IMG/VR virus record: IMGVR_UViG_3300000301_000076
Reading direction: 5' to 3' (one strand)
DNA: 22,417 nt
Source of the DNA: a virus
Taxonomy: Duplodnaviria > Heunggongvirae > Uroviricota > Caudoviricetes
Of the stretch, positions 1-17,290 are shown piece by piece. Below the pieces are notes generated by a model, which was given only the letters and a program-made list of their open reading frames with translations, had not been told where the DNA came from and ran no database searches. Position 1 is the stretch's first letter. The number at the start of each line of letters is the position of its first letter. The translations under genes and the position numbers were made by a program.

Positions 1-3000
1 TACAGACTCCATTTAACCTCGGCGCTACAGCAGTAACCCGATTCAATCGTGCGGCACGTATGGGGCTGGCTCCGATCCCCTCTCTTATTTTCGCCATCCG
101 TGGGGCGATTACGGGGCTTAAAGGCGCTTTTGCTGGATTAACGGCGTTCATTGCGGCAAACCCTATAGGGGCAGCATTTACAGTCGCCACTGTAGCTGTT
201 GCTGGCCTAATCACGTACATGACCATGCTCCGCAGCGAAACTTCAAAGGTCGTTGACGAGATTAGGAAAATACCAGAGGCGATGACGGCGGCCAAACGTG
301 CACAAATGGCCGACCGCGCAGAAAAGCTCGAAAAGCAGATTCTTGCTGATCAACGAGCATTAAAAACTGGTGAGGGTGTTAATTACGTATCTAACTCTGC
401 CGGTGTTATTACTCACAAAGAGTCGAAGGCTGACATCGAAGCACGCCTGAAAAAAAATCAGGAAGAGTATCAAAAGATAACCGGCACGATAGCTCTTGGT
501 GACGGCGCTGTAGCAAAGCGTTTGGCTAAAGAGGCTGCCGAATCTCAGATTGAGAAAATTCGAGCGGAAAACCAGATTTTCGCGGCAACATTCGTGAAAG
601 CCCGGCAAGAGGCTCTGGATAAGATCCAGAAAATCAATGATGACGGTTCACTTTCAGATGACGAAAAGAACAAGCTATTGGCACCGTTACGTGAAACGGT
701 AAACAAAAGCTATCTGGAGCCTGCGCAAAAACTGGTTGATTCACTTTCTTCTCGTAAGAATGCGACCGAGAAGCAAATTGCGACTCTTAATGATCAGCTT
801 GAAAAAGCCAAAAAGGATGGAAATACCGAGCAGATCCAGAAACTGCAAGGCAGTATTCGTGGTTATCAGGAGCATTTGGAAGCCGTTGCTCAGGAGCTGA
901 CTCAGGCAGAGTTCGAGAGAGATAACGCGGCCAAAACTGGTAAGGGCGTAATGTCAAACCAGGGGACTGTTCTTGGGTTAGGTACAACTGATAAAGCTGC
1001 TCAGAAGGCGTTGGCGCAATATATGCGAAACCAGATGGATTCTGCGACTTATCAGCGTACTTTGCCTGACGGCACTCCGATGATGGACTTCGAAGGTAAG
1101 CCGATTATTGGGCCTAAACAACTCAAGACGCAGCTTAATTTGCAGAAAGCATCCAGTGCCAGCTCTCTGGAGAAAATGAGCGATGAAGAGCGTGCCGCAG
1201 CCATTGCCGCACTTACTAAAGCTCGTGAACAGGATGCAGCAGCTGCCGAGAAAGCAGCCCAACGATCAGCTAACGCCTCGCAGCGTGCGGCCAAGAAGGA
1301 ACAGGCAGCGCAACAGAAACTGGCAGCCGGATACCAGAAGGCTCTGGACAAAGCTGATCAGCTTATGGGGCAAATGGGTGAAAGCTCTAAGGCTACGGTA
1401 TCGTTTGATCAGTCTCTTCGCGATACAACGAAATCGCTGACAGATTTGGCTAATGCGGTACCTAACGAGTTCATCACTCAAGAGATGATCGACAAGGCGA
1501 AAAAACGTCTTGAAGACCTCAAAAATGCGACACCTGAATATCGCGAGATGTTTAATCGCCGCAATGTTGAGCAGATGATCTCCACTTGGGCACCGGAGGC
1601 GGATTCCATTATTAGTGCTGGCTATACGCCGTCTCGCGAAGAGAAAGTTGCTGATTTCGAAGACACCTACAACCGCAATCTCAAAGCGTTGATAGAACTT
1701 CGTGATAAGGCGTCTGATCCTAAAGTTGTGGCGCTTTATACAAAGAAAATCAATCAACTGATTGCTGCTGGCAATACCGCGCTTATTAAAGAGACGGGGA
1801 CTGCGACGCAGAAGTTGGCACTGGAATACGAAAATCTGGCAGAGCAGATCGAAAGCACCTGGACTGATTTGTTTAGTGGCTTAACTGATGTCCTGACTGA
1901 TTTCGTTATTAACGGGAAGATGAGCTTCTCCAGCCTATCTCAGTCCATTTTGAAAGATATCACCAATATGGTCGTGAAGTCGCAGATCACGCTGCCTCTA
2001 ATGAACATGTTGGGGATGGGAACCACCGCAGCTGGTAGTTCACAGAGTGGTAATTTGCTCACCGGGGTTGCTTCCGCAGTTGCCAATCAAGGTGTGCGCA
2101 TAAGCAACACTGTTAATGGCGACAAGTCGGTAGGAGAAGCCACGAAGGAGACGTCCAGTTCGGTAACTGGATTGGGGCAAACGACACAGCAGACCACCAG
2201 CGCAATTGGCACAGCAACAAATGCGATTGGTAGCTGGGTATCAGGGCTATTTAATAGCACCGAAGCCAAAGATGCTGAGACAAAAGCAGTGAAGGACTCC
2301 ATCTTCTCGATGCAGAACCTCAGCTCTGTTACCGGCGCTCTGTCTGCCGCGTTTGCAATGCTTGGAGCTAATGCTTCCGGCTCTGGTAATAAGTGGTTGA
2401 ATTTCGGCGCGACAGTTGCATCTGGTTTGGTTTCAGTATGGGCTGGTGGTGGATTCGATGGATTGATGTCCGGTTCTTCTGGCTCAACTTCCGGGTTCAA
2501 CAATCTGACCAGTTCTGCTGCCGATGGCACGAATGGTATTCCTGCAATTCCGAAGTTTGCAAATGGTGGCATATTCGGAAAAGACGGCGTGATCCCGCTC
2601 CGGGCATACCAGAAAGGCGGTATCGCCAACTCACCTCAATTGGCGTTGTTTGGGGAAGGCGATATGAATGAGGCGTATGTTCCATTGCCTGATGGTCGNN
2701 NNNNNNNNNNNNNNNNNNNNNNNNNNNNNNNNNNNNNNNNNNNNNNNNNNNNNNNNNNNNNNNNNNNNNNNNNNNNNNNNNNNNCCTGTAACGCTCAGTA
2801 CCGATGGTATGAGTGGAGGAGGAAATGTTCTTTCTCCTGTATCAATTGAGATCAACGTCCATAGTGACGGTAGCACAACTGAATCCGGCGATACAGAAAG
2901 CATATGGAACAATGCCGCTCAACGGATGAAAGCAATCGCGCTTGAGACTATCGCTCAAGAGAAACGCCCTGGCGGATCACTCAACCCAAACACTCAACGT

Positions 3001-3006
3001 AACTAA
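1..3006 (+). CDS. Tail tape measure protein, 5' partial (reading frame is open to the window start; interrupted by N-run 2699-2784)
   Basis: About 1000 codons open in one frame from nt 3 with no upstream stop. The first 60 residues are hydrophobic, which in lambda H sits about 100 residues in, so the true start is probably upstream of the window. The middle is long and Ala/Lys/Glu/Gln-rich (coiled-coil-like) and the C-terminal part is Gly/Ser-rich. It sits immediately upstream of M-L-K-I-J homologues. Stop TAA at 3004-3006 in the frame that resumes after the N-run. Confidence 0.85.
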
Positions 3007-3011
3007 CTATC

Positions 3012-3033
3012 GACTGCCCCGACCGGGGCAGTC
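3012..3033 (+). other. GC-rich hairpin just after the tape measure stop (gactgcccc / gacc / ggggcagtc)
   Basis: Perfect 9-bp inverted repeat with a 4-nt loop, read directly from the sequence; no U-tract follows. Confidence 0.4.
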
Positions 3034-3048
3034 TCACAAGGATGTGAG

Positions 3049-3384
3049 ATGGAAAGACAAACGTTTAATTGGTATCCAGATTACGAATCTGAAAAGAGCG
3101 TAAAACCGAATGTAACGGTACTTAATTTTGGTGATGACTACGAGCAGCGACAGGCTCAAGGTCTTAATCGTATTAAAGAAGAATGGTCGTTAACCTTTAC
3201 CAGATCATACAACGAAATTAATGCAATCGATGACTTCCTGACTGAGCGATCAGGCGTTGAATCGTTCTATTGGGTTAATCCAAGAGGCAAGCAGATTGTA
3301 GTTGTATGTGACAGTCATACGGTCAAGCGATATCAGGGGTACTGTGTCTTAACTGCTACATTCAGACAAGTATTTGAGGCTTAA
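3049..3384 (+). CDS. M: Minor tail protein M homologue
   Basis: 111 aa, the size and position of lambda gpM (directly after the tape measure, before L). I recall similarity to lambda M in the N-terminal third (F-W-Y, then V-x-x-L-x-F-G-D-x-Y-x-Q-R). ATG at 3049. Confidence 0.8.
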   Translation: MERQTFNWYPDYESEKSVKPNVTVLNFGDDYEQRQAQGLNRIKEEWSLTFTRSYNEINAIDDFLTERSGVESFYWVNPRGKQIVVVCDSHTVKRYQGYCVLTATFRQVFEA

Positions 3385-3466
3385 GTATCTGGATAAGTAA
3401 GTACTAATTTACTATCATTGTGGCGCTGACAGGATGTTAGCGCCTACTTATTTCAAGGATGAAACA

Positions 3467-4165
3467 ATGGGAATTAAAGCTGATATTCAGAGCTTATCTC
3501 CCTCTGCACTCATTGAGTTGTTCGTACTGGATATGTCGAACACAACTTCAGGGGGGAAGCTATTCTTCCACGCCGGAACAAACGAACTGATGCAACCGGT
3601 CGTCTGGCAAGGAGTGACATACGAGCCGTGGCCAATCAAAGCATCAGGCTTTGACAAAACTGGCCAGGGAACGTTGCCACGTCCAAAAATTCAGGTATCG
3701 AACTTTGCCGGAACCGTCTCTGCGGAAGTTCAGGCGAACGACGATCTTGTTGGCTGCCGCATTATTCGCAAGATGACGCTGGCTCGCTTCCTCGATGCCG
3801 TTAATTTTAAAGACGGCAACCCAACAGCAGATCCAAATCAACATTTCCCGGATGAAATGTGGTTTATCGAACAGAAAACTCTCGAAACTCATCAGGTTGT
3901 CGAGTTTGAATTGTCCAGTGTGTTCGATTTGATGGGGGTGCAACTGCCGTATCGTCAGATCATTAAAAACACCTGCCCGTGGAAATACCGAGGGCCAGAA
4001 TGCGGCTATACCGGCCCATATTTCGACAAAAATAACCAGCAGACGTCTATGTCTGGTGCTGATTACTGCACAAAACGTTATGACGCCTGTAATGCGCGTC
4101 GGAATTATTTTGCCGACGGTGTGATCCATTTTGGCGGATTTATTGGAGCTACGCGGTATGGGTAA
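3467..4165 (+). CDS. L: Minor tail protein L homologue
   Basis: Recalled similarity to lambda gpL (V-x-W-Q-G-x-x-Y-x-P-x-P-I, R-P-x-x-x-V-S-N, R-F-L-D-A-V-N-F, C-x-W-x-Y-R-G-x-E-C-G-Y-x-G-P, F-G-G-F). ATG 3467 is preferred over the in-frame ATG 3434 because of the AGGA Shine-Dalgarno 8 nt upstream and a better length match. Confidence 0.85.
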   Translation: MGIKADIQSLSPSALIELFVLDMSNTTSGGKLFFHAGTNELMQPVVWQGVTYEPWPIKASGFDKTGQGTLPRPKIQVSNFAGTVSAEVQANDDLVGCRIIRKMTLARFLDAVNFKDGNPTADPNQHFPDEMWFIEQKTLETHQVVEFELSSVFDLMGVQLPYRQIIKNTCPWKYRGPECGYTGPYFDKNNQQTSMSGADYCTKRYDACNARRNYFADGVIHFGGFIGATRYG

Positions 4166-4955
4166 TAAAGCAATCCCTGAGCTTGGCTCTGACGTTATGC
4201 AGCAAATCTATCTCTGCGCCATAAATCGCTACCCTAATGAAGCGTGTGGCTTTCTGGTTAGAACTAATGGCGACAAATATCGCTTTATGGAAGCGCGGAA
4301 TGTATCGGAGAACCCGCAGAACACTTTTGTAATGCACGTTGACGACATTATAGCGGCAGAGGATGCAGGTGACGTAATTGCAATCTGGCATTCACATACT
4401 GATGAATCAGCAGAAGCATCTGATGCCGATCGTGCTGGCTGTGAAGCGACGGAAGTTCCGTGGATGATTCTGGCTATTCGCAAGAATGTTGAGGGAGATG
4501 CCCCTTTCCATTTTAGCGAGATGAATGTGATCACACCTGATGGTTTCGAAATGCCATACTTGGGCAGACCGTATATATTTGGCGTATTCGATTGCTGGAT
4601 GTTGTGTCGGGACTATCTGAAGCGTGAGTTTAACGTCGAGCTTAACCCGAACGCACACCTGCATATCCCATCATGGTACACCGGCGATAACGACATTCTC
4701 GACAAGAACTACCGAAACGAAGGATTGGTACGGCTTGCGCCCGGAACAGAGCCTCAACGTGGGGACGTCTTCTTTATCCAATACGGAAAAATGCCTGACC
4801 ACTGTGCGGTTTATATCGGCGATGGAATGATTCTTCATCACCAGATCGACCGTCTTAGTTGTCGTGCTTATTACGGCGGGATGTATCAGAAACATACGAC
4901 GCATCACTTGCGTCACAGAGACTTGCTCAAGGGAGATGAGACGTGTCTGAGTTAG
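4158..4955 (+). CDS. K: Tail assembly protein K homologue (N-terminal JAMM/MPN-like plus C-terminal NlpC/P60-like)
   Basis: H-S-H-x7-S-x2-D motif (WHSHTDESAEASDAD) typical of JAMM/MPN; a C-terminal region with Cys (DCWMLCRDY) and His (HCAVYIGDGMILHH) consistent with NlpC/P60. ATG 4158 with GGAG upstream, overlapping the L stop. The ORF-track start at 4131 is probably an upstream extension. Confidence 0.85.
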   Translation: MGNKAIPELGSDVMQQIYLCAINRYPNEACGFLVRTNGDKYRFMEARNVSENPQNTFVMHVDDIIAAEDAGDVIAIWHSHTDESAEASDADRAGCEATEVPWMILAIRKNVEGDAPFHFSEMNVITPDGFEMPYLGRPYIFGVFDCWMLCRDYLKREFNVELNPNAHLHIPSWYTGDNDILDKNYRNEGLVRLAPGTEPQRGDVFFIQYGKMPDHCAVYIGDGMILHHQIDRLSCRAYYGGMYQKHTTHHLRHRDLLKGDETCLS

Positions 4956-5704
4956 TTCATGTGCAGCTTGGCGGCCCTATGGCCAAACATTTTGGCCGCC
5001 ACTGGCATCTAAAGGTGCGCAATACAAAACAGGCTCTGGATTTAATTGAGGCCAACAAGCCAGGGTTTAAAGCATGGATGAAGCGCAACATCAAAACCTA
5101 TGACAGATACCACATCCAGATCACCAATAANNNNNNNNNNNNNNNNNNNNNNNNNNNNNNNNNNNNNNNNNNNNNNNNNNNNNNNNNNNNNNNNNNNNNN
5201 NNNNNNNNNNNNNNNNNNNNNNNNNNNNNNNNNNNNNNNNNNNNNNNNNNNNNNNNNNNNNNNNNNNNNNNNNNNNNNNNNNNNNNNNNNNNNNNNNNNN
5301 NNNNNNNNNNNNNNNNNNNNNNNNNNNNNNNNNNNNNNNNCAGACGGTAGTAGGGGCCGCTTTGTTGGTTGTATCGGCGGTAATGATGCCTGCTTTAGCA
5401 CCTCTCGGTTTGTCACTAATGATGGGCGGCATATCACAAATAATATCGCCGCAAGCCACTAACGAAAGTGTGAGACAGGCAGATAACTCGAACTCTTATT
5501 NNNNNNNNNNNNNNNNNNNNNNNNNNNNNNNNNNNNNNNNNNNNNNNNNNNNNNNNNNNNNNNNNNNNNNNNNNNNNNNNNNNNNNNNNNNNCCCTCAAA
5601 ATACAGAAAACCAGGGCAACCCAGTACAACTTATCTATGGCGAGGAAATTCTGGTTGGCTCACAGGTTGTGAGTTCTTCAATCACGATTGACCAGCTAAT
5701 GTAA
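4943..5704 (+). CDS. I: Tail assembly protein I homologue (interrupted by N-runs 5131-5340 and 5501-5592)
   Basis: GTG start at 4943 with GGGAG 7 nt upstream, overlapping the K stop. The hydrophobic Gly/Ala-rich central segment resembles lambda gpI. After the last N-run the frame ending TAA 5702-5704 reads PVQLIYGEEILVGSQVVSSSITIDQLM, which matches the lambda I C-terminus (LPVLYGEMRVGSRVVSQEIS), so I prefer it to the ORF-track frame ending at 5691. Confidence 0.75.
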
Positions 5705-5721
5705 ACAAGGATTTTTTGAAC

Positions 5722-8700
5722 ATGGAACAGTTCAAGAAGAAAAAGCTACCGCTGTTTATTGCCGGTGCGGGTGGTAAAAAAAGCAGCAAAAGATCCAGCC
5801 GTACACCGGTTGAAGCCGACGATACCGTAAATTCTCGTGCAATGGCCGCTATCCTCGATCTTCTTGGGGAAGGGGTAATTGGCGGTTTAGTAAATGGCGC
5901 AAGATCTATTTTTATCGACGATCTGCCGATTGTAAATGAAGACGGTTCCTCCAACTTCAGCGGAATCACATGGGATTTTCGCGACGGTTCGCAAGACCAG
6001 ACTCCAATGTCTGGCTTTGATTTCGTTGAAACGCCTAAATCCGTCAATATCCAGTTAAAAAAAACACATTATGTAACGGTTTCAATCGATAACGATGAAG
6101 CTGATCGGGTTCGTGTCATCATGAAGTTTCCTTCTTTGCGAAGCATAGATAAAAAAACTGGTGACACGAACGGTACGACTGTTGAGTACAAGTTCCAGAT
6201 AGCAAATGGCGACTCAACATTTGTAGATGTGGTCGCTGAAGGTGAAAAAAGCGTTGGCATTAAGCTAACAGCAAAGAAGACCGGCGTTTATTACCGTAGC
6301 TATGAGCTGAAGCTGCCTAAGCCTGGACGAGCATACAAGGTTCGTGTGGTCCGTATTACCGATGATAACAGTAGCCAGTATCTCTATAACGATACATGGG
6401 TGGATTCAATCGGGGAAATTGTCGATACACCGATGAACTATCCAAACTCTGTTTTGGTTGGATTGAAGGTAAACTCTGAGCAATTCGGCAGCACCATGCC
6501 ATCTCGCTCTTATCTGGTGCGTGGCCTAAAAATTCGAGTACCTTCAAACTATAACGAGTCCAGTAACACTTACGCTGGGGTATGGGATGGCACTTTTAAG
6601 CTGTTGTCTTCTTCGAACCCCGCGTGGATTCTCTTTGATTTGCTGACCAATGCTCGATATGGCCTTGGTCAGTATGTGTCGGAATCTATGATTGACCTTG
6701 GCCAGTTGTACCAGATTGGTCGATATTGTGACGAAGAGGTCGATGATGGCTTTGGTGGCAAAGAGAAACGCTTTGCAATCAATACGCAGATCACCAGTCG
6801 ACAGGACGCATACCGGCTAATTCAGGATATTGCCGGAGCATTCCGCGGCATGGTGTTTTGGGCTGGTGGGATGGTTAACATCATGCANNNNNNNNNNNNN
6901 NNNNNNNNNNNNNNNNNNNNNNNNNNNNNNNNNNNNNNNNNNNNNNNNNNNNNNNNNNNNNNNNNNNNNNNNNNNNNNNNAGATCCGGTAATGATGTTTA
7001 CCAACTCTAACGTCAAAGATGGATTGTTTACCTATAAAGGTTCTGCGCGTAAAGATCGCCCATCCGTTGCGCTCGTAACCTACAACAACAAGGAGGACGG
7101 TTATAAGCAAAACATCGAGTACGTCGAAGATCAGGACGCAATGCGCCGTTATGGTGAGCGTAAGACAGAAGTCGTAGCATTTGGCTGTACAAGCCGAGGC
7201 CAGNNNNNNNNNNNNNNNNNNNNNNNNNNNNNNNNNNNNNNNNNNNNNNNNNNNNNNNNNNNNNNNNNNNNNNNNNNNNNNNNNNNNNNNNNNNTTTATG
7301 GCTTTTGTATACAGCCAGAATGGAGTCGGATGTAATTACATTTACTGCCGGCTTAGATGCGTCATTCCTGATGCCTGGTGAAACCGTTCTGATTCAGAAC
7401 AAATATCGCGCAGGCAAACGTAACTCAGGTCGAATTGTGGCGTTTACCAAAAACAGCGTCACACTCGATGCGCCTGTGTCGTTAGCCAAAGGCGGCTGCT
7501 TTATTCGAATACNNNNNNNNNNNNNNNNNNNNNNNNNNNNNNNNNNNNNNNNNNNNNNNNNNNNNNNNNNNNNNNNNNNNNNNNNNNNNNNNNNNNNNNN
7601 NNNCAAAATCGTTGAACGCGATGTTCTTGAAACTGGCGAAAATATAACAAAAGTTACGTTTTCAAAAGCCCTGTCTTCGGCTGAAACGCCTGTTTTGAAC
7701 GGCGTCTGGACTATTACAGAACCAGACCTCGAACCTATGCGCGTTCGCATTGTTAACATAGCACAGGGGGAAACGCCGGGTAGCTTTGACATCACCGCTG
7801 TTGAGAACAATCCGTCTAAATATGAGGCGATCGACAATGGTGCAACGCTTATCCCGCAGAATACGACGGTATTGGACCCGACTTATTCCAAGCCGTCTAA
7901 TTTGCAAATCACTGNNNNNNNNNNNNNNNNNNNNNNNNNNNNNNNNNNNNNNNNNNNNNNNNNNNNNNNNNNNNNNNNNNNNNNNNNNNNNNNNNNNNNN
8001 NNNNNNNNNNNNNNNNNNNNNNNNTGTCAGTAAAACTGACTGCAACATGGGAAGGGAAATCTCCAGAGTATTGGATCAGTTGGCGACGTTCTGATGAAAA
8101 CAATGTATCGAACTGGCAATCGGCGCGTGTAACCGAAGAGCAATACGAAATCGTTAATGTTGCGGAGAATGGACGCTACGACTTCCAGCTGTATGCGGTT
8201 TCATTCAACGGTAAAAAAACAGAGATTATCAGTACCGTTTATCAGGTGCTGGGCACAATGACACCGCCAGATGCCCCAACGTCATTAACGGCCGTTGGAG
8301 ACTATCGTAATGTGATACTGAATTGGGTTAATCCAGATTCGGTAGACCTTGATCACATTAATGTTTACGCATCCCAGACCAACAATCTGGATACAGCGAA
8401 ACTGATCGCAGAGTCTGCAAGCACCACCTTTACACATGCTGGTCTTGGGGATAGCGAAACGTGGTATTACTGGGTTCGTGCGTCAAACAAGCGCGGTATG
8501 TTGAGTCCTCCGAACTCAAACTTGGGTACAGAGGCGACGACTCGCGATGTGCTGTCGTTCCTGACAGGCAAAATTACGTCTTCTGAACTTGGCCAGACTT
8601 TACTTGAGGAAATCGACTCAAAAGTATCTCAGGAGGCGGTGGATTCCATCTATCAACAGATGGAAGAAAGTCTGAAAATCCTCGATGACAAATTTACAGA

Positions 8701-10463
8701 TGCCGATCAGCGGCTTGAAGAAGCTCAAAACAATCTTAAAACGGAAGTTTCCGGTACTGTCAGCAAGGTGGAAGACGCGCTTAAGGAGGTTGCAAACTCT
8801 AACGCTGCCTTAATTCAGTTGCAGGAAANNNNNNNNNNNNNNNNNNNNNNNNNNNNNNNNNNNNNNNNNNNNNNNNNNNNNNNNNNNNNNNNNNNNNNGC
8901 AGGGTAAAGCTGTAGCTGGAGCTGTTGAGGCGGCAAATGCAGCACTTGACAATTCATCGGCTTTAATTGCGGAGGAGCGTGAAGCACGAGTTGAGGGTGA
9001 CTTGGCAAACGCNNNNNNNNNNNNNNNNNNNNNNNNNNNNNNNNNNNNNNNNNNNNNNNNNNNNNNNNNNTCGAGGCGATGAAGTCAACTGTAGATAGCA
9101 GTTTAGCCACCATTGAAGAAATGAAAAAAACCGTGGCTGAAGTTGAACGTTCTAGTGCCGAAGTTACGACAAACATTGAGGCATTGGCTAAAACAAACAT
9201 CGATCTTGCTTTGCGTCAGGATGAAGATCAGCACAAGCAGATGGTGAGTAATGCGAAGATCACCACAACTCAGAAGGCTTTTGCAGACGATATATCTGCA
9301 ATGGCTACGAAAATGGAGGAAATTCGCGCTGAAATAAATGAGGATATCAGAGCTTCAATCACTGAAGAAACAACGGCTCGTGTAGATGCTGATAATGCTA
9401 TTGCAAGCAGAATCACCAAACTTGAATCAAAGATTAACGATGATATTTCTGCCGCAATTGTGAGTGAACAAGAGGCACGAGCTAGTGCCGATGAAGCACT
9501 TTCAAAAGAAATACTATCGTTACAAGCCAAAATTGAAGGCGATATTAGTGCAGCTATATCTGAAGAAAAAATTGCCCGAGCAACTGCTGATGAATCTTTA
9601 GNNNNNNNNNNNNNNNNNNNNNNNNNNNNNNNNNNNNNNNNNNNNNNNNNNNNNNNNNNNNNNNNNNNNNNNNNNNNNNNNNNNNNNNNNNNNNNNNNNN
9701 NNNNNNNNNNNNNNNAGATATTAAGGCGGCTGTAGCAGAAGAGACGAAAGCCAGAACTGACGCTGATTCGGCTTTGGCTTCTAGTATCACTAATCTACAG
9801 GCGCAAACGAGCAAAGATATTAATGCCGCGATTACGTCTGAGGCAACTGTGCGCACAAACGCCGACAATGCTCTAAGTGGACGAATTGACACCTTAAAAG
9901 CATCAGTTGATGGAAATACAGCGACAATTCAAGAGCANNNNNNNNNNNNNNNNNNNNNNNNNNNNNNNNNNNNNNNNNNNNNNNNNNNNNNNNNNNNNNN
10001 NNNNNNNNNNNNNNNGGCAACTGCTATTGCTGATACTAACAAAAAGGTTTCAACCGCGTGGACGTTGAAGATGGAAACGTCAACAAGTGGTGGGCAAAAA
10101 TATGTCGCAGGTATTGCGCTTGGAATTGACACCACGGGGCTTTCCCAGTTTTTGGTGCAAGCAGATCGATTTGGTCTAGTTAACTCAGTTAACGGAAAGA
10201 TCACCACACCATTTGTTATCGAAAACAGCGTTGCATACATGAATGGTGCGTATATTAAGGATGGTACTATCACAAATGCAAAGGTAGGTGACTTGCAATC
10301 AACAAACTTCGTAAGCGGACGAGTCGGATGGCGATTTGGTAAAAATGGAACGCTTGAGATCAACGGCAATAGTGGCGGCAATGGGAGATTGGTTATAAAT
10401 GGTCAGAGGATTGACGTTTATGATGACAATAATGTCCTTCGAGTGAGGATTGGTCAGCTTTGA
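5722..10463 (+). CDS. J: Host-specificity / central tail tip protein J homologue with an internal coiled-coil repeat insertion (many N-runs; frame changes at each)
   Basis: N-terminal 500 aa are collinear with lambda gpJ by recall (GITWDFRDGSQDQTP, YPNSVLVGLKVNSEQFGS, GLKIRVPSNYN, GVWDGTF, DGFGG, AFGCTSRGQ). Fibronectin-III-like segment at about 8027-8540. Near the C-terminus YVAGIALGIDTTGLSQFLVQADRF matches lambda J [28 protein letters not shown]. Coding is continuous across the gaps only if the N-runs are not length-preserving. ATG 5722 with AAGGA 10 nt upstream; stop at 10461-10463. Confidence 0.85.
9280..9938 (+). repeat. At least six tandem copies of a 33-codon (99-nt) repeat inside J (consensus D-I-x-A-A-I-x-x-E-x-x-A-R-x-x-A-D-x-A-L-x-x-x-I-x-x-L-x-A-x-x-x-x)
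   Basis: The periodic units are visible in the translation and the DNA (gatatatctgca, gatatcagagct, gatatttctgccgca, gatattagtgcagct, gatattaaggcggct, gatattaatgccgcg). Interrupted by N-run 9602-9715, so the copy number is a minimum. Confidence 0.8.
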
Positions 10464-10512
10464 TTGTGGAAAAAAATAATCATTTCTGTAAAAATAGGTA
10501 GGTACTAACTTA

Positions 10513-10537
10513 ATGGTGGGCATGGAACGCCCACCAT
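10513..10537 (+). other. Intergenic hairpin between J and the side tail fibre gene (atggtgggc / atggaac / gcccaccat)
   Basis: Perfect 9-bp inverted repeat with a 7-nt loop; no U-tract; followed by the RBS TAGGAG for the next gene. Confidence 0.4.
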
Positions 10538-10556
10538 ATCTAGGAGCAAAGGATAA

Positions 10557-13171
10557 ATGTGGTACAGGGAAGGTACAATAAATCTCACTAAAGGAAATAA
10601 AACTGTAGTGGGAACAGGCACAGCCTGGGGAGTGACGGCGAACGGCGTCCTTCCAGGTATGATATTGATTGGCCCCGATAATAAGTTATATGAAATAAAA
10701 TCAATCGAGAGTGACACTTCGTTAACTCTTGTTGAAGCCTACGGTGGTAGCACCCAAACAAATGTCCCGTGCAGAATAATTACGACCTATGAAGGTGATT
10801 TAACCCAATTTAGTGCTCGTTTTACTGCGCTTATGTCTCGCATGTCAGCCNNNNNNNNNNNNNNNNNNNNNNNNNNNNNNNNNNNNNNNNNNNNNNNNNN
10901 NNNNNNNNNNNNNNNNNNNNNNNNNNNNNNNNNNNNNNNNNNTCAAAAATGATGCGTAGTTGGTTGACTGCCGTGGATGAAATAACAATTGAGCGTGAAG
11001 ATGGCACGGAATTAACCGTAAAATCCCTTACGCAGATCGTTAATGAGCACAATGAGAACCTAGAATGGTATAAAGAAAATACTCCCATAATTAACACCGC
11101 TGCACAAAAAGCTAAAGAGGCGGCAGCGAGCGCAACAGCGGCCAAAAAATCAGAAACTAACTCAAAAGCGAGTGAGACAGCTTCAAAGACTAGCGAAACT
11201 AATGCGAAAAATAGCGAGGTAGCTGCAAAATCGAGTCAGAGTGCTGCCGCAAACTCCGCTACCGCAGCAAAAAACAGCCAGGATGCAGCAGCCGAAAGCG
11301 AGAGTGCTGCAGCTGGTTCTGCGACTTCAGCAGCTGGATCAGCAACTGCTGCGGCTAACAGCCAGAAAGCCGCGAAGACGAGCGAAACTAACGCAAAGTC
11401 CAGCCAGACGGCAGCGAAGACCAGCGAAACAAATGCCAAAGCCAGCGAAACTGCGGCGAAAAACAGTCAGGATGCAGCAGCCCAAAGCGAGAGTGCCGCA
11501 GCTGGTTCTGCAAGTGCGGCGGCTTCTTCTGCCTCTGCATCAGCCAACAGTCAAAAAGCTGCAAAAACCAGTGAAACCAACGCAAAGGCGAGCGAGACTG
11601 AGGCGGCTAACTCAGCGAAAGCATCGGCAGCAAGCCAGACGGCTGCAAAAGCAAGTGAAGACGCAGCCAGAGAGTATGCAAGCCAGGCTGCGGAGCCGTA
11701 TAAACAAGTTTTGCAGCCGCTTCCCGATGTGTGGATACCGTTTAACGATTCACTGGATATGATTACGGGCTTTTCGCCGTCATATAAAAAGATTGTTATT
11801 GGTGATGATGAAATAACGATGCCTGGCGATAAGGTTGTAAAGTTTAAACGCGCATCAACTGCCACATATATCAATAAATCAGGCGTATTTAGTGTTGCTA
11901 AAATTGATGAGCCACGATTTGAAAAAGAAGGTTTATTGATTGAAGGACAGCGCACTAACTATTTTGTTAAATCCAATATCCCCGCTGAATGGACGAGTAC
12001 CAGCAATATCGATAAAACTAATAATGGTGTTGATGAATTTGGTTTTTCATATGCCAAAATGCGAACAAAAGATAATATGACAGGACAATCATCTGCACTT
12101 AGTCTGCATACATGCAGTGCATCCCGGGGGATTGATGTTAGTGGCGATAATAAGTATTGCACTGTTTCATGCAGGGTTAAAGCTCCTGATGGTCTTCGTT
12201 GTCGTTTGCGTTTTGAAAAATACGATGGGTCGGTTTATACATTTTTAGGAGATGCTTATTTAACTTTCGGAACTCTGATAATAGAAAAAACTGGCGGAGC
12301 AGCCAATAGAATAGCAGCTACTGCAACTAAAGATCCGGTTACAGGGTGGATTTTCTATGAGGCAACTATAGAAGCTGTTGAAGGTGAAACCTTAATTGGC
12401 GCAATGATTCAGTATGCGCCGAAAAAAGGTGGTGTAACTGAAGCGGGAGATTATATTTACCTTGCAACACCACAATTTGAAAACGGCGGATGTGCTTCAT
12501 CTTTTGTTATTACGACAACTGTACCCGCAACCCGCTCCAGTGATATGGTGACGATCCCAACTGAAAATAATATCTATAATAGACCGCTTACGTGCCTGGT
12601 CGAGGTTAATAGAAATTGGGGCGATATTCCTCCTAATGTAGCACCGCGTATTTTTGATTTTTCTGGTGTGCCACCTATTGAGTCAATTACATACGCTTTT
12701 AACACAACTGAGAAATATTACGGNNNNNNNNNNNNNNNNNNNNNNNNNNNNNNNNNNNNNNNNNNNNNNNNNNNNNNNNNNNNNNNNNNNNNNNNNNNNN
12801 NNNNNNNNNNNNNNNNNNNNNNNNNNNNCGTCGACAAGTACTTACGTTTCTAGTGTGTTTGCTGGTCGAACTGATGTTCGAAAATTCATTGGTGGTTTTA
12901 ATATTTATTCTGATGGTACTAAACGAGTAGTTTCTAACGGTGAGGCTACTAAAACCATGAAAACGGAGTGGACGGGCGTAAAAACACGGACCTTTATTCG
13001 AATTGGAGGTCAAGCCACATCGGGAACTCGTCATCTATTCGGCCATTNNNNNNNNNNNNNNNNNNNNNNNNNNNNNNNNNNNNNNNNNNNNNNNNNNNNN
13101 NNNNNNNNNNNNNNNNNNNNNNNNNNNNNNNNNNNNNNNNNNNNNNNNNNNNNNNNGGCATAAAGAATTAA
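10557..13171 (+). CDS. Side tail fibre protein (receptor-binding fibre); 3' end uncertain (13171 or 13203 depending on the frame after N-run 13048-13156)
   Basis: ATG 10557 with GGAG upstream. Long Ala/Ser/Thr/Lys/Glu/Asn low-complexity segment with repeated KTSETNAK and NSQDAAA-SESAAAGSA motifs, as in the lambda Stf collar region, followed by a roughly 400-aa globular distal domain. The segments between N-runs are open in only one frame each. Confidence 0.7.
11270..11650 (+). repeat. Two near-identical direct repeats of about 190 nt inside the fibre collar region
   Basis: aaaaacagccaggatgcagcagccgaaagcgagagtgctgcagctggttctgc at about 11271 recurs as aaaaacagtcaggatgcagcagcccaaagcgagagtgccgcagctggttctgc at about 11460; the protein repeats AAKNSQDAAA(E/Q)SESAAAGSA...ANSQKAAKTSETNAK. 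Confidence 0.75.
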
Positions 13172-13199
13172 CTGATGCGCAAATGGGGGAGAGTATTAA

Positions 13200-13481
13200 A
13201 TGAAAGATTTAACGCTCAAATTTGCAGACAGGGCCGACTTTTCGGCCTTTATGGAGAGTATTGGCTATTATGATGACGAGTCGATGCAGGGTGATATTCT
13301 TATTGACGTGATAGGTAACGTGTACAAAGAAACCGGAGAACTGACTGAAGATGGCGAACCGGTATGTGTTAAGGAGGACGGATATTTTGTAAACGTGCGC
13401 ATCATTAATGATGCAAAAAAATCGTCAATATTCGATAAATACGCGATTGTTGTTGAGCATCAACTTCGTGGCTGGATGTGA
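13200..13481 (+). CDS. Hypothetical protein, 93 aa (possible fibre assembly factor by position only)
   Basis: ATG 13200 preceded by GGGGGAG; acidic soluble protein; lies between the fibre gene and the chaperone-domain gene. No family recognised. Confidence 0.45.
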   Translation: MKDLTLKFADRADFSAFMESIGYYDDESMQGDILIDVIGNVYKETGELTEDGEPVCVKEDGYFVNVRIINDAKKSSIFDKYAIVVEHQLRGWM

Positions 13482-13490
13482 GGGAGACAA

Positions 13491-14364
13491 ATGGCTACAT
13501 CGACAGTAATTCCAGGAGACATCACCACGTTAAAGGGAGATGTCAGTAAAGCCAAGGAAGATATTTCCTCAATTAACGGAAAAGTATCAACGCTTCAGAC
13601 TGATATGACCAGTGCAAAGCAGGATATCAGCACCAGATACACAAAAACTGAAGTTGATAATANNNNNNNNNNNNNNNNNNNNNNNNNNNNNNNNNNNNNN
13701 NNNNNNNNNNNNNNNNNNNNNNNNNNNNNNNNNNNNNNNNNNNNNNNNNNNNNNNNNNNAAAGTGGAAGTGAACGATCTGGAAAGTGGTCGTTATGGTGG
13801 AGATTTTTACCCGCTGACTGGTCGTGAAGCGTTTTATTTGTGGGGATTGGGCACGACTACAGCGGCGGCAAACCTTTATCTTAATCCTGACCCCGCAATT
13901 TCGTCTGTACTGCGGTCCACATCGTCTATCCGCTATAAACATTCAGTAGAGACGATAGATTCGGAGCACGCCGATCTCATTTTCAAGATGCGCCCTGTGT
14001 GGTACAGGTCGCAATGCGAAAATGACAGGCGCGATTGGGGATTCTATGGATTGATTGCCGAGGAAGTAGGAGAAATTGCCCCTCAGTTTGTTCACTGGCG
14101 AGCAGCTAACGAGAATNNNNNNNNNNNNNNNNNNNNNNNNNNNNNNNNNNNNNNNNNNNNNNNNNNNNNNNNNNNNNNNNNNNNNNNNNNNNNNNNNNNN
14201 NNNNNNNNNNNNNNNTTTCCAGCAATGGCCTTGTTGCCGAAGGTGTAATGTACGAACGTCTGGTTGTTCCACTGATTCACCATATCCAGAAACTGACTGA
14301 AAGAGTTGATGAACTTGAGTCAGAATTAAAGTTGTTATCAACTTCCCGAAGCGATATCGGATAA
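13491..14364 (+). CDS. Short fibre-like protein with N-terminal coiled coil and C-terminal intramolecular-chaperone (peptidase S74-like) domain; N-runs 13663-13759 and 14117-14215
   Basis: ATG 13491 with GAGGGAG upstream. The N-terminus has heptad-like repeats (TLKGDVSKAKEDISSINGKVSTLQTDMTSAKQDIS). The C-terminal part has the hallmarks I recall from endosialidase and T5 pb1 chaperone domains: a Ser-rich site (RSTSSIRYK), WGFYGLIAEEVGEIAPQFV, and a terminal Y-x-x-L-V-x-x-L-I-x-x-I-Q-K-L-x-x-R-V-x-E-L-E helix. Stop at 14362-14364. Confidence 0.6.
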
Positions 14365-16584: not shown

Positions 16585-16606
16585 GTTCCCCTCAAATGAG
16601 GGGAAC
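16585..16606. terminator. Perfect palindrome gttcccctca-aa-tgaggggaac between convergent operons; possible bidirectional terminator
   Basis: 10-bp arms read directly; lies 8 nt after the spanin stop and near the toxin 3' end on the - strand. No clear U-tract on either side, so terminator function is uncertain. Confidence 0.35.
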
Positions 16607-16714
16607 ACATTATTCTNNNNNNNNNNNNNNNNNNNNNNNNNNNNNNNNNNNNNNNNNNNNNNNNNNNNNNNNNNNNNNNNNNNNNNNNNNNNNNNNNNNN
16701 NNNNNNNNNNNNNN

Positions 16715-17290
16715 AGATTTTGTAGGATAGAACAAAGAACGCTCGTTGTTACCAACCAGCTGGATAAAGCCTAAACTTTTATAAAACGCCTTGGCTTTGT
16801 CATTTAACGCCTCAACGAAAAGTCCATGAATGCCTACAGCAAGAGATGCATTGTACACAACGCGCATTGCATGTGTTACAAGNNNNNNNNNNNNNNNNNN
16901 NNNNNNNNNNNNNNNNNNNNNNNNNNNNNNNNNNNNNNNNNNNNNNNNNNNNNNNNNNNNNATTGAGCCAAATCCTTGACCTTGAAGGGACTTGTCCAAA
17001 GCCAGCCTACCCAAAGTAACACTTGGAACATTCCGATAAGGAACCTTCTTTTGTTTGCTTCTTGAAGGTAAGGACTCCTTTTCAAAACAACTACCTGACA
17101 AAGTGTAATATCCTAACACTTTTGGCCTTTCTTCTTGAGTGCAAAGCACATAAGCACGAAGAATTTTTCCCTCATGCTGCCTTTTTAAGTGGTTGGCTAA
17201 AAAGGCGTTTAGTGACTCTTCGCCGCAATCAAAACCGTTTAGATCATAATCTTTCTCTCCAGAGAAAATCTCTATCGTTGTATTGCTCAC
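16715..17290 (-). CDS. GNAT-family acetyltransferase toxin, AtaT/TacT-like (3' end lies inside N-run 16617-16714; internal N-run 16883-16961)
   Basis: The translation is close to my recollection of E. coli AtaT (YDLxxFDCGEExLNxFL, KILRAYVLC, VLGYYTLSGSCFE, QKKVPYxNVPSVTLGRLAxDxSLQGQGFG, HAMxVVxxASLAVGIHGLFVEALNxKA, FYKSLGFIxLVG, FYPTKS). GTG start at 17290, 5 nt after the antitoxin stop. Confidence 0.85.

Follow-up and report, generated by a model that had tools for sequence, protein, structure and literature searches.

The energy source by which non-contractile tails breach the cell envelope is an open question, and pyocin work published in 2026 has proposed a coiled-coil-to-beta-prism switch and predicted the same switch in siphophages. 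The conversion was shown experimentally for the F7 pyocin, together with the motif SxSxxMxxLxS and its role in the switch (PMC12874032), and the pyocin shaft equivalent to the one described below is both a side-fibre docking platform and a metastable fold-switching element (PMC12874032, PMC13455828), two roles that the original prediction for the present locus did not foresee. Docking of side fibres on the shaft has been described in PMC13455828, PMC12874032 and 10.64898/2026.02.24.707460. In phage T1, residues 821-1172 of the corresponding protein, gp33, are unresolved and known from AlphaFold3 only (PMC11945409). In the Pseudomonas phage DEV, the short fibre gp56 recruits gp55 and gp54, the latter being the LptD-binding protein, and several Drexlerviridae have been proposed to use LptD via a receptor-binding protein (RBP) encoded by a gene flanking the gpJ homologue (PMC12892993).

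We analysed a 22,417-nt stretch of DNA from a tailed virus (Caudoviricetes; IMG/VR record IMGVR_UViG_3300000301_000076), referred to here as the window, in which a lambda J-like protein had been predicted to carry a large repeat insertion. The identification of this protein as the central tail fibre of an SSU5-like E. coli phage-plasmid, of an already known design, is well supported; recent work has found this long-shafted design in phage T1 and in F-type pyocins, and the J-like protein is a fairly ordinary member. E. coli, Shigella and Salmonella commonly harbour SSU5-like phage-plasmids, some of which spread antibiotic resistance genes; related fragments occur in Yersinia and Enterobacter.

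Gene reconstruction and the lambda-like body

The J-like gene lies after the tape measure, M-, L-, K- and I-like genes, as determined from the annotation of a 99.7%-identical relative (L001) mapped onto the window, and was found where the original prediction had placed it, as a single ORF with its stop codon at window position 10463; position 8580 corresponds to residue ~848, where the shaft begins (Table 1). Four runs of N within 8580-10463 (70, 58, 114 and 78 N) correspond to only 10, 8, 37 and 0 bases in L001, and all N-runs checked in the window were padded by 50-89 nt over the homologous gap in that relative, which inflates the apparent length of 8580-10463 by 265 nt. Because the reading frame shifts across the padded runs, the ORF listing breaks the gene into pieces; when the masks were filled from L001, a single continuous ORF of 1386 aa resulted, with eight residues unlike the L001 protein. 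The original prediction had considered that a stop codon, a separate gene or a lambda-like C-terminal domain might lie beneath the masks of the J-like gene, but none was present after filling. Hidden content under the N-runs was thus rejected, given the 50-89 nt of padding and the restoration of one ORF. None of the 120 closest database proteins contained all nine unmasked window segments, the best containing seven, and a second, word-indexed protein search yielded short partial proteins only.

The protein tracks lambda J through the N-terminal body and fibronectin-III (FN3) region, as had been predicted: BLASTP aligned residues 18-860 with lambda J 2-836 (32% identity, E = 1e-116) and residues 1231-1319 with lambda J 841-931. 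Between the aligned blocks lie ~370 residues in the J-like protein compared to ~4 in lambda J, and the "insertion" is an expansion of a short neck already at the same place in lambda J. Its position between ITSSELG (aa 846-852) and YVAGIALG (aa 1267-1274 of 1386) was correctly anticipated, the two motifs being separated by 414 residues, and the C-terminus is reached 120 residues past the start of YVAGIALG, as against the predicted ~130. The Pfam fn3 match for the last fibronectin-III domain scored 24.8 bits, marginally below the 25-bit cut-off. Body colinearity, the first ~90 Phage_Tail_Tip residues and a gene place after K- and I-like genes are common to lambda gpJ (PDB 8iyk, 8k35, 8xcj), which, however, continues into the LamB-binding Ig_GpJ_C domain (PF12421, aa 1001-1132). 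Pfam found no Ig_GpJ_C in the J-like protein, and the N-runs hide only 0-37 bases each, in agreement with the prediction that a lambda-type receptor-binding domain (RBD) is missing.

The Phage_Tail_Tip match is full-length (profile positions 1-138 of 139), and the protein ends 18 residues beyond it. Although this ending had been singled out as notable, it is the norm in the family, as evidenced by the 129 of 150 family representatives that end at the same point with no extra RBD. Some relatives carry an extra domain of 150-200 aa fused in place of the last ~30 residues. A lambda-type RBD was ruled out for one such longer relative (P0117), the extra domain of which had no Pfam match and resembled only a segment of the J-like protein 23gd_D.

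Table 1. Features of the central fibre and side fibre region in window coordinates
Feature	Coordinates	Strand	Evidence and remarks
J-like central fibre / tail tip gene	5722..10463	+	1386 aa after N-run resolution; reconstruction against relative L001; lambda J colinearity
FNIII-A_GpJ (aa 102-236) and Phage-tail_3 (aa 358-521), hub/body	6025..7442	+	Pfam E 9e-30, 1e-35
Last fibronectin-III (aa 745-824) and GKITSSELG junction (aa 846-852)	8270..8593	+	Pfam fn3; BLASTP alignment with lambda spans region
Proximal shaft (aa 848-1032), proline-free, heptad-like, non-repetitive	8579..9243	+	Periodicity, AF2 helix; padded N-runs 8829-8898, 9013-9070
Most conserved shaft block (aa 1004-1036), then predicted helix break (aa 1033-1040)	9157..9267	+	Alignment, AF2
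33-residue unit array: partial unit (aa 1051-1076) and five full units (aa 1077-1241)	9298..10025	+	Padded N-runs 9602-9715, 9938-10015
Phage_Tail_Tip (PF09327, aa 1234-1368) and terminal strand ...LRVRIGQL (aa 1369-1386), protein end	9924..10460	+	Pfam E 7e-42
G+C-rich hairpin, 9 base pairs, in 93-nt J/side-fibre spacer	10513..10537	+	RNA fold -21.6 kcal/mol, z = -2.1
Side tail fibre gene	10557..13200	+	794 aa in closest relative; PHROG tail fibre families match
Beta-barrel adaptor domain, side-fibre residues 1-75	10557-10781	+	Profile match, AF2

The two-part shaft and its possible change of fold

The last FN3 domain is separated from the tip module by ~370-400 extra proline-free helical residues (393 by the family-wide measure), with no proline across 380 shaft residues. 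The original prediction of several hundred residues of 33-residue repeats was right as to the periodicity but not as to its extent: only the distal ~190 shaft residues (aa ~1051-1241) consist of such units, which show 46% identity at an offset of 33 and six unit-HMM matches at 33-residue spacing, while the proximal ~185 residues have a heptad-like pattern without repeats. No 33-residue period was found in residues 860-1060, and the hydrophobic periodicity of the proximal half peaked at 3.56 residues, above the 95% level of shuffles. The array, by comparison, has two peaks side by side, a dominant beta-like one at 2.06 residues and a hendecad-like one at 3.66 residues. Full matches to SxSxxMxxLxS numbered 13 in aa 1060-1266, compared to 3.5 ± 1.8 in shuffles (0 of 2000 shuffles reached 13), and they flip orientation once per unit, at 33-residue spacing; the proximal half was not enriched (five matches versus 3.1 expected).

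AlphaFold2 (AF2) predicted helices over aa 848-1032 and aa 1041-1248 of the C-terminal fragment, with a pLDDT of 70-77 over the repeats, a low-pLDDT break at fragment residues 195-202 and a poorly modelled tip module (pLDDT 30-50); this model is a monomer based on an alignment of six sequences (mean pLDDT 59), and for such sequence a long single helix is a default output. Homology suggests that the shaft would be a three-stranded coiled coil in a trimer. The shaft block at aa 1004-1036 is 95-100% identical across six diverged variants and can also be aligned to T1 gp33 and to a J protein of 28% identity; together with the break it is a candidate for a hinge or for the site where side fibres dock. 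A charge scan for the docking site found acidity along the whole shaft (net charge -34) and did not single out the break.

We consider it probable, with some reserve, that the protein is a trimeric central fibre on the T1 gp33/F-type-pyocin plan, with recognition via side fibres and with distal units that switch fold. This reading starts from what was observed directly, namely the gene structure, domain order, two-part periodicity, motif enrichment, homologies and unit-number polymorphism. The short lambda J neck would have become a ~400-residue proline-free shaft composed of a ~185-residue stalk, the conserved break and 5-6 distal units, and the fibre would terminate in the Phage_Tail_Tip beta-prism module with no fused RBD. 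Upon contact with the cell surface, each distal unit would turn from coiled coil into one beta-hairpin of a beta-prism, and this conversion would shorten the fibre and open the tail tip. Such a switch in the J-like protein is suggested by homology to the pyocin fibre; the pyocin authors' statement that lambda and T5 do not use it counts against this reading.

A less likely alternative, which we nevertheless take seriously, is that the shaft is a permanent coiled-coil spacer that undergoes no switch and sets the reach of the tip and side fibres through O-antigen or capsule, the number of units tuning that reach. Shaft length in the family is continuous, from ~20 to >3000 residues, and some shafts contain globular inserts, which looks like reach tuning or decoration; in addition, close relatives differ by whole units (4 to 10), the proximal half combines plain heptad periodicity with absence of the switch motif, and AF2 predicts helix only. 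A permanent spacer would, however, leave unexplained a switch motif that occurs in the distal units far above chance and in alternating orientation, as well as a dominant 2.06-residue period that is needless for a pure coiled coil, and the distal units are homologous to the pyocin segment in which the switch has been demonstrated (PMC12874032). The two readings are compatible, and the proximal half may well act as a static stalk.

Close relatives of 1353, 1386, 1426, 1509 and 1575 aa have 4, 5, 6, 8 and 10 full units, respectively. The predicted proneness to length variation is therefore borne out by the relatives, but not as slippage: Tandem Repeats Finder called no array in the unit region, and recurrence at 99-nt spacing was limited to 14-26-nt patches of 76-82% identity. 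Since the units are too diverged at the DNA level, the variation points to recombinational mosaicism rather than a slippage-prone tract, and a contingency locus of the tandem-repeat type was rejected on the lack of near-identical head-to-tail DNA repeats. It is conceivable, though we regard it as doubtful, that the array is a natural "spring" of adjustable length whose 4-10 units, carried by SSU5-like phage-plasmids as interchangeable alleles, would tune stored energy, stroke length or the reach of the tail tip, with the upstream break as a modular docking socket for side fibres that bear the beta-barrel adaptor; the conserved break ahead of the array is single both here and in T1, and one distant relative has it three times. 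With respect to the preferred reading of a fold-switching fibre, SSU5-like phage-plasmids offer a replicating-phage case with countable units, natural 4-10-unit alleles and a recognisable side-fibre adaptor, and these alleles together with the adaptor form a ready allelic series for the switch and docking model.

The side fibre and host recognition

The N-terminal profile of the side fibre matched residues 3-73 of the F2-pyocin side fibre (25ve_A), the OB-like beta-barrel domain by which that fibre binds the pyocin shaft, as its best PDB match (E = 3e-7). The second-best sequence match was a distal-tail-protein decoration (23gd_B); thus, the fold alone is no proof that the adaptor binds the shaft. 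AF2 predicted a six-strand barrel over side-fibre aa 3-75, followed by helices, and Foldseek with this adaptor model returned weak matches (best E = 6e-3; PDB to April 2026, which may lack pyocin entries) to small barrels in phage tailspike N-termini and tube decorations. A tblastn search with the adaptor against phage genomes yielded only seven records, six SSU5-like and one from an Aeromonas phage, which are too few for co-occurrence analysis; a distant relative (L004) has both a long-shafted J protein and a fibre gene with the same N-terminal domain. The remainder of the side fibre comprises an Ala/Ser-rich shaft and a distal domain, the distal part having 95-96% identity to stf cassettes of prophages. 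The J/side-fibre spacer contained no T-run terminator.

By homology, the adaptor is expected to dock on the central-fibre shaft. In the trimeric, fold-switching fibre that we favour, host recognition would be carried out largely by the downstream side fibres, the N-terminal beta-barrel docking on the shaft and the distal half acting as an exchangeable cassette common to lambdoid prophages. A lambdoid side-fibre cassette could then be re-targeted to another attachment point through a swap of the N-terminal adaptor alone, and such swapping would be useful for host-range prediction and fibre engineering.

It is improbable that the Phage_Tail_Tip end recruits a small RBP encoded elsewhere and that this RBP, not the side fibre, makes the decisive contact. 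The same terminal module is a recruiting platform in DEV (PMC12892993), and this role has been predicted for F-pyocins, in which the central fibre would bind PA0642 (PMC12874032; 10.64898/2026.02.24.707460); moreover, genes 3' of the side fibre encode two proteins of ~93 aa and a 234-aa fibre protein that carries a Peptidase_S74 chaperone domain. These 93-, 234- and 94-aa genes, however, accompany the stf cassette in one lambdoid prophage that has a lambda-type J, and they therefore probably belong to the side fibre. Furthermore, no ORF is available from the J stop to the side-fibre start, the 93-nt spacer containing no credible ORF and only one of 22 codons, and relatives with a fused domain of 150-200 aa suggest that the plain ending may work alone. 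Judged by gene order, no homologue of PA0642 or of a PyoF11-12-type distal adhesin lies adjacent to the J-like gene, and no gp55 or gp54 equivalents were found next to it.

The original prediction was that receptor recognition is probably delegated to the side fibre, which the pyocin-like adaptor makes plausible, or to the repeat region. That the 33-residue repeats are themselves the receptor-binding surface is very improbable: an exposed, repetitive shaft whose unit number differs from relative to relative, and the lack of a fused RBD or adjacent adhesin gene, speak for it, yet the residues that units have in common are small or hydrophobic and belong to the structural core rather than a surface patch, units of this type are found both in T1 and in Pseudomonas pyocins, which differ in hosts and receptors, and the gene directly downstream encodes a dedicated side fibre whose distal domain is exchangeable.

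Comparison with pyocins, DEV and T1

The F2-pyocin central fibre (25vf_A) aligned over aa 1135-1358 at E = 1.8e-27, including ~100 pyocin coiled-coil residues. A J-like body, a long helical shaft and a Phage_Tail_Tip beta-prism end are common to the F-type pyocins (F2 25vf, F7 CFP and PAO1 PA0641), whose central fibres also lack the lambda RBD, carry the SxSxxMxxLxS motif and are partnered by a side fibre with a homologous N-terminal beta-barrel. The shaft of ~400 residues is longer than the 163-178 residues in F-type pyocins and, unlike theirs, is in two parts, clean 33-residue units being confined to the distal half; no PA0642/PyoF11-12-type gene follows the J-like gene, and the distal half of the side fibre is an enterobacterial stf-type cassette, whereas in pyocins it is an R-pyocin-like RBD. 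Pyocins are tailocins, whereas the J-like protein belongs to a DNA-carrying phage-plasmid and is known here from sequence, its switch and docking being proposed by homology.

DEV gp56 (PDB 9ze4 chain N; E = 1.6e-19) matches as far as residue 427 of its 429 and has two coil units in common with the J-like protein, as well as the tip module and terminal strand, but this podovirus protein lacks the J body. T1 gp33 (PDB 9l9p chain S, 1172 aa) matched at E = 8e-29 with coil segments in the alignment. The gpJ-flanking RBP gene proposed for Drexlerviridae is absent beside the J-like gene, and the T1 gp33 shaft is approximately half as long as the one described here. T1 gp33 nevertheless agrees with the J-like protein in domain order, in the conserved block that precedes the units, in the type of 33-residue unit (REVIATETEALSREIDQLKAQIGDDIQASLTDI in T1 gp33 versus SEQEARASADEALSKEILSLQAKIEGDISAAI here) and, with its C-terminal ...LRVQIGRL, in the ending.

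Reconstruction and domain order of the J-like gene

Matches to the region came from SSU5-like phage-plasmids of ~106-110 kb in Escherichia and Shigella, and all E. coli matches were plasmid-borne; the best (CP100028.1 and a group of plasmids of 106,011 bp) were 99.6-99.7% identical, and phage SSU5 itself was 87% identical to the J-like protein across the C-terminal 556 residues. The window span exceeds the matched span in these relatives by 265 nt. In a segment-wise alignment of the unmasked window with the 99.7%-identical reference relative (L001), the four N-runs in the shaft and tip part of the gene (70, 58, 114 and 78 N) corresponded to 10, 8, 37 and 0 bases. Because every run checked is too long by 50-89 nt against the corresponding gap in this plasmid, the N-runs are padded masks; the padding shifts the frame, so that mechanical ORF lists break up every gene in the window and split the J-like gene into five pieces. 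Each of the nine unmasked segments of this gene is open in one frame, and filling the gaps from L001 yielded a single 1386-aa ORF, with 8 residue differences between its product and the protein of L001. The masks thus filled hide neither a stop codon nor a separate gene nor a lambda-like domain, so that the refuting conditions named in the original prediction did not arise. L001, the closest relative, also carries an ISApl1 (IS30-like) insertion between its L-like and K-like tail genes (L001 4327-5402), absent from the window at 4162-4163; downstream of the tail genes its annotation places a gene pair, one for a GNAT-family acetyltransferase and the other for a DUF1778 protein (L001 16354-17152; ~window 16600-17290, minus strand), which resembles a toxin-antitoxin pair.

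By BLASTP, residues 18-860 of the J-like protein aligned with lambda J 2-836 (32% identity, E 1e-116) and residues 1231-1319 with lambda J 841-931; straight after the conserved GKITSSELG junction, lambda J has ~4 residues where the J-like protein has ~370. Pfam identified FNIII-A_GpJ and Phage-tail_3, fn3 at the borderline, and the Phage_Tail_Tip module in full, 18 residues past which the protein stops. The Ig_GpJ_C receptor-binding domain, located at 1001-1132 in lambda J, was not found by Pfam in the J-like protein. We judged the original observation, a 33-residue repeat insertion together with a missing lambda-type receptor-binding domain, to be correct and useful.

Coordinates of the J-like gene, its shaft and the downstream side-fibre region
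Feature	Window (nt)	Protein (aa)	Description
N-runs	e.g. 5131-5340, 8829-8898, 9938-10015		25 across the window
J-like gene	5722-10463 (+)	1-1386	central fibre / tail tip protein
ITSSELG motif		846-852
Proximal shaft		~848-1043	heptad-like, without 33-residue period
Conserved block		1004-1036
Distal shaft		~1051-1241	five complete 33-residue units plus a partial one; 46% identity at an offset of 33 residues
SxSxxMxxLxS, reverse		1069, 1102, 1135, 1168, 1201
SxSxxMxxLxS, forward		1084, 1117, 1150, 1183, 1216
Phage_Tail_Tip		1234-1368
YVAGIALG motif		1267-1274
G+C-rich hairpin	10513-10537		9 bp, AUGGUGGGC...GCCCACCAU; between central-fibre and side-fibre genes; fold z-score -2.1
Side fibre gene	10557-13200	794 residues	directly downstream of J-like gene
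Fibre cassette	11131-14300		distal two-thirds of side fibre (from ~11131) and next three genes
Three genes after side fibre		93; 234; 94 residues	second with Peptidase_S74 chaperone domain

The two-part shaft and its length alleles

The inserted shaft (0 proline and 8 glycines in 380 residues; 17% alanine) is two-part rather than uniform. The hydrophobicity of the proximal half is heptad-like, its 3.56-residue period exceeding the 95% level of shuffles, and 33-residue periodicity, absent there, belongs to the distal half. Tandem Repeats Finder called no array in the DNA, where the units have diverged too far, and short patches of 76-82% identity are all that recurs every 99 nt. An AF2 model of the C-terminal fragment (a monomer from a shallow alignment; mean pLDDT 59, 70-77 across the units) had two helices, aa 848-1032 and aa 1041-1248, separated at aa 1033-1040 by a break of low confidence. 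Preceding this break is the best-conserved block of the shaft, 95-100% identical in six diverged variants, which also aligns with phage T1 gp33 and with a J protein only 28% identical overall.

Every beta-prism strand of the F7 pyocin is marked by the pattern SxSxxMxxLxS (PMC12874032), which we scored in both orientations against 2000 shuffles. Residues 1060-1266 contained 13 full matches against 3.5 ± 1.8 in shuffled sequences, a count reached by 0 of the 2000, while the proximal half was not enriched (5 matches vs 3.1 expected). Every unit holds one forward and one reverse match, the arrangement to be expected of units able to form one beta-hairpin apiece. The dominant hydrophobic period of the unit array was 2.06 residues (power 157 vs a 95% null of 75), accompanied by a hendecad-like period of 3.66 residues; both are harmonics of the 33-residue repeat and fit a sequence amphipathic as both strand and helix.

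A search with the tip module of 1.84 billion cluster representatives returned 1177 clusters at E <= 1e-3. Among the best 150 of these, 129 representatives stop, like the J-like protein, at most a few residues past the tip module, and ~16 carry an extra domain of 150-200 residues instead of the last ~30. Some SSU5-like alleles are of this build; one close relative (P0117, 1526 aa) has a ~170-aa domain of this kind at residues ~1355-1526, for which there was no Pfam match and similarity only to a segment of the J-like protein 23gd_D. For 44 of these representatives, which match the last-FN3/junction region as well, the last FN3 domain and the tip module are 19 to 3231 residues apart (393 in the J-like protein). 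The giant J-like proteins P0155 (4233 aa), P0149 (3930 aa), P0150 (3176 aa) and P0177 (2040 aa) have the body and tip module of the window's protein; shafts in this group are up to 3231 residues long and combine coil of 44-residue periodicity with globular inserts that lie between the coil segments, and that of P0177 consists of coil alone, 1045 residues long and with a period of 32 residues. Unit number is polymorphic among close relatives, proteins of 1353, 1386, 1426, 1509 and 1575 aa containing 4, 5, 6, 8 and 10 full units, respectively; the 1426-aa form also has a 7-residue insertion in its proximal part, and the largest cluster, which has 1980 member sequences, is represented by the form of 1575 aa. 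Most plasmid relatives match the window's shaft allele at megablast level only over the conserved central block and first units, and the shaft is therefore mosaic.

A distant relative (Logan ERR10961001_128, 2534-10630) has its J gene in two ORFs with a ~440-residue shaft in which, judged by eye, a block resembling the conserved block (ALAKTNIDLALRQDEDQHKQ...TTQK) appears three times.

The side fibre and its adaptor

The best PDB match of the side-fibre N-terminal profile was the F2-pyocin side fibre (25ve_A, E 3e-7, residues 2-75 vs 3-73). The second-best was a distal-tail-protein decoration domain (23gd_B, E 1.4e-5), in agreement with the published likeness of the pyocin side-fibre domain to the T5 distal-tail-protein decoration (PMC13455828). 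AF2 modeled a six-strand barrel at aa 3-75 followed by helices, and the most invariant stretch of this N-terminal region, IITTYEGDLTQFSA(R/K)F, lies just past the barrel; Foldseek with the model gave weak matches only, from a PDB copy that may predate the pyocin entries. Partial adaptor homologues with 75-77% identity were annotated in Enterobacter kobei, Enterobacter hormaechei and Yersinia pestis (P0129, P0132 and P0133), so that relatives of the tail module reach beyond Escherichia, Shigella and Salmonella. In the distant relative ERR10961001_128, the J gene is followed by a DUF6453 gene and lom, then by genes for a Collar-domain fibre, a Caudo_TAP-family tail fibre assembly protein and a protein of 209 aa; this last carries the beta-barrel adaptor found on the window's side fibre.

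The fibre cassette is 95-96% identical to one in chromosomal lambdoid prophages (NZ_CP117013.1, 2501-5331), where the fibre has a PF08400 N-terminal domain and is placed after a lambda-type gpJ gene and lom. The difference between the two copies is confined to the N-terminal adaptor, beta-barrel vs PF08400, and looks like an adaptor swap re-targeting one fibre to a different attachment point.

Proposed mechanism and comparison with known systems

Sequence searches of the shaft and tip against solved structures matched the T1 central fibre gp33 (9l9p_S, E 8e-29), which shares its 33-residue unit type and its ending (...LRVQIGRL) with the J-like protein; the F2-pyocin central fibre (25vf_A, E 1.8e-27) over aa 1135-1358, including ~100 residues of pyocin coiled coil; and the short fibre gp56 of Pseudomonas phage DEV (9ze4_N, E 1.6e-19) over two coil units, tip module and terminal strand. 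For T1, AlphaFold3 is the sole source on residues 821-1172, which went unresolved (PMC11945409). In pyocins the fibre shaft is a trimeric coiled coil, and three trimeric side fibres bind its kinked acidic segment via their N-terminal domains (PMC13455828; 10.64898/2026.02.24.707460; PMC12874032; all 2026). In the F7 pyocin, cell contact turns a 163-residue coil into a beta-prism, the tip opens and the tape measure protein is ejected, and of the 24 central fibres of siphophages examined, 21 were predicted to have similar switches (PMC12874032).

By homology, the shaft of the J-like protein would likewise be a trimeric coiled coil on which the side fibres dock through the beta-barrel adaptor, and the distal unit array would be a metastable element collapsing into a beta-prism upon surface contact. 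The best candidate for the docking site is aa 1004-1040, with the conserved block and the break; a charge scan of the shaft did not single out this stretch. The side fibre is the most plausible carrier of host recognition. SSU5 is described as core-lipopolysaccharide-specific in the title of Kim et al. 2014 (cited in PMC4690856).

The shaft may instead serve just as a static stalk, with reach tuned through its length. The plain heptad of the proximal half and the continuous range of family shaft lengths fit this reading, but it leaves the SxSxxMxxLxS motif and the beta-type periodicity of the units unexplained. The tip module may also recruit a separate adhesin encoded elsewhere, as DEV gp56 is a platform recruiting the receptor-binding proteins gp55 and gp54 (PMC12892993); at the pyocin position of such a gene, here the 93-nt spacer that separates the J stop codon from the start of the side-fibre gene, there is no PA0642 / PyoF11-12-type adhesin gene, the spacer containing only a 22-codon ORF and the hairpin, after which there is no T-run. 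Binding of the receptor by the 33-residue repeats themselves found no support.

The J-like protein belongs to the kind described in 2025-2026 for T1 gp33 and the F-pyocin central fibres and has no novelty of its own. What it offers in particular is a shaft that is long, falls cleanly into two parts and occurs in natural alleles of differing unit number, together with its pairing to a recognisable side-fibre adaptor.
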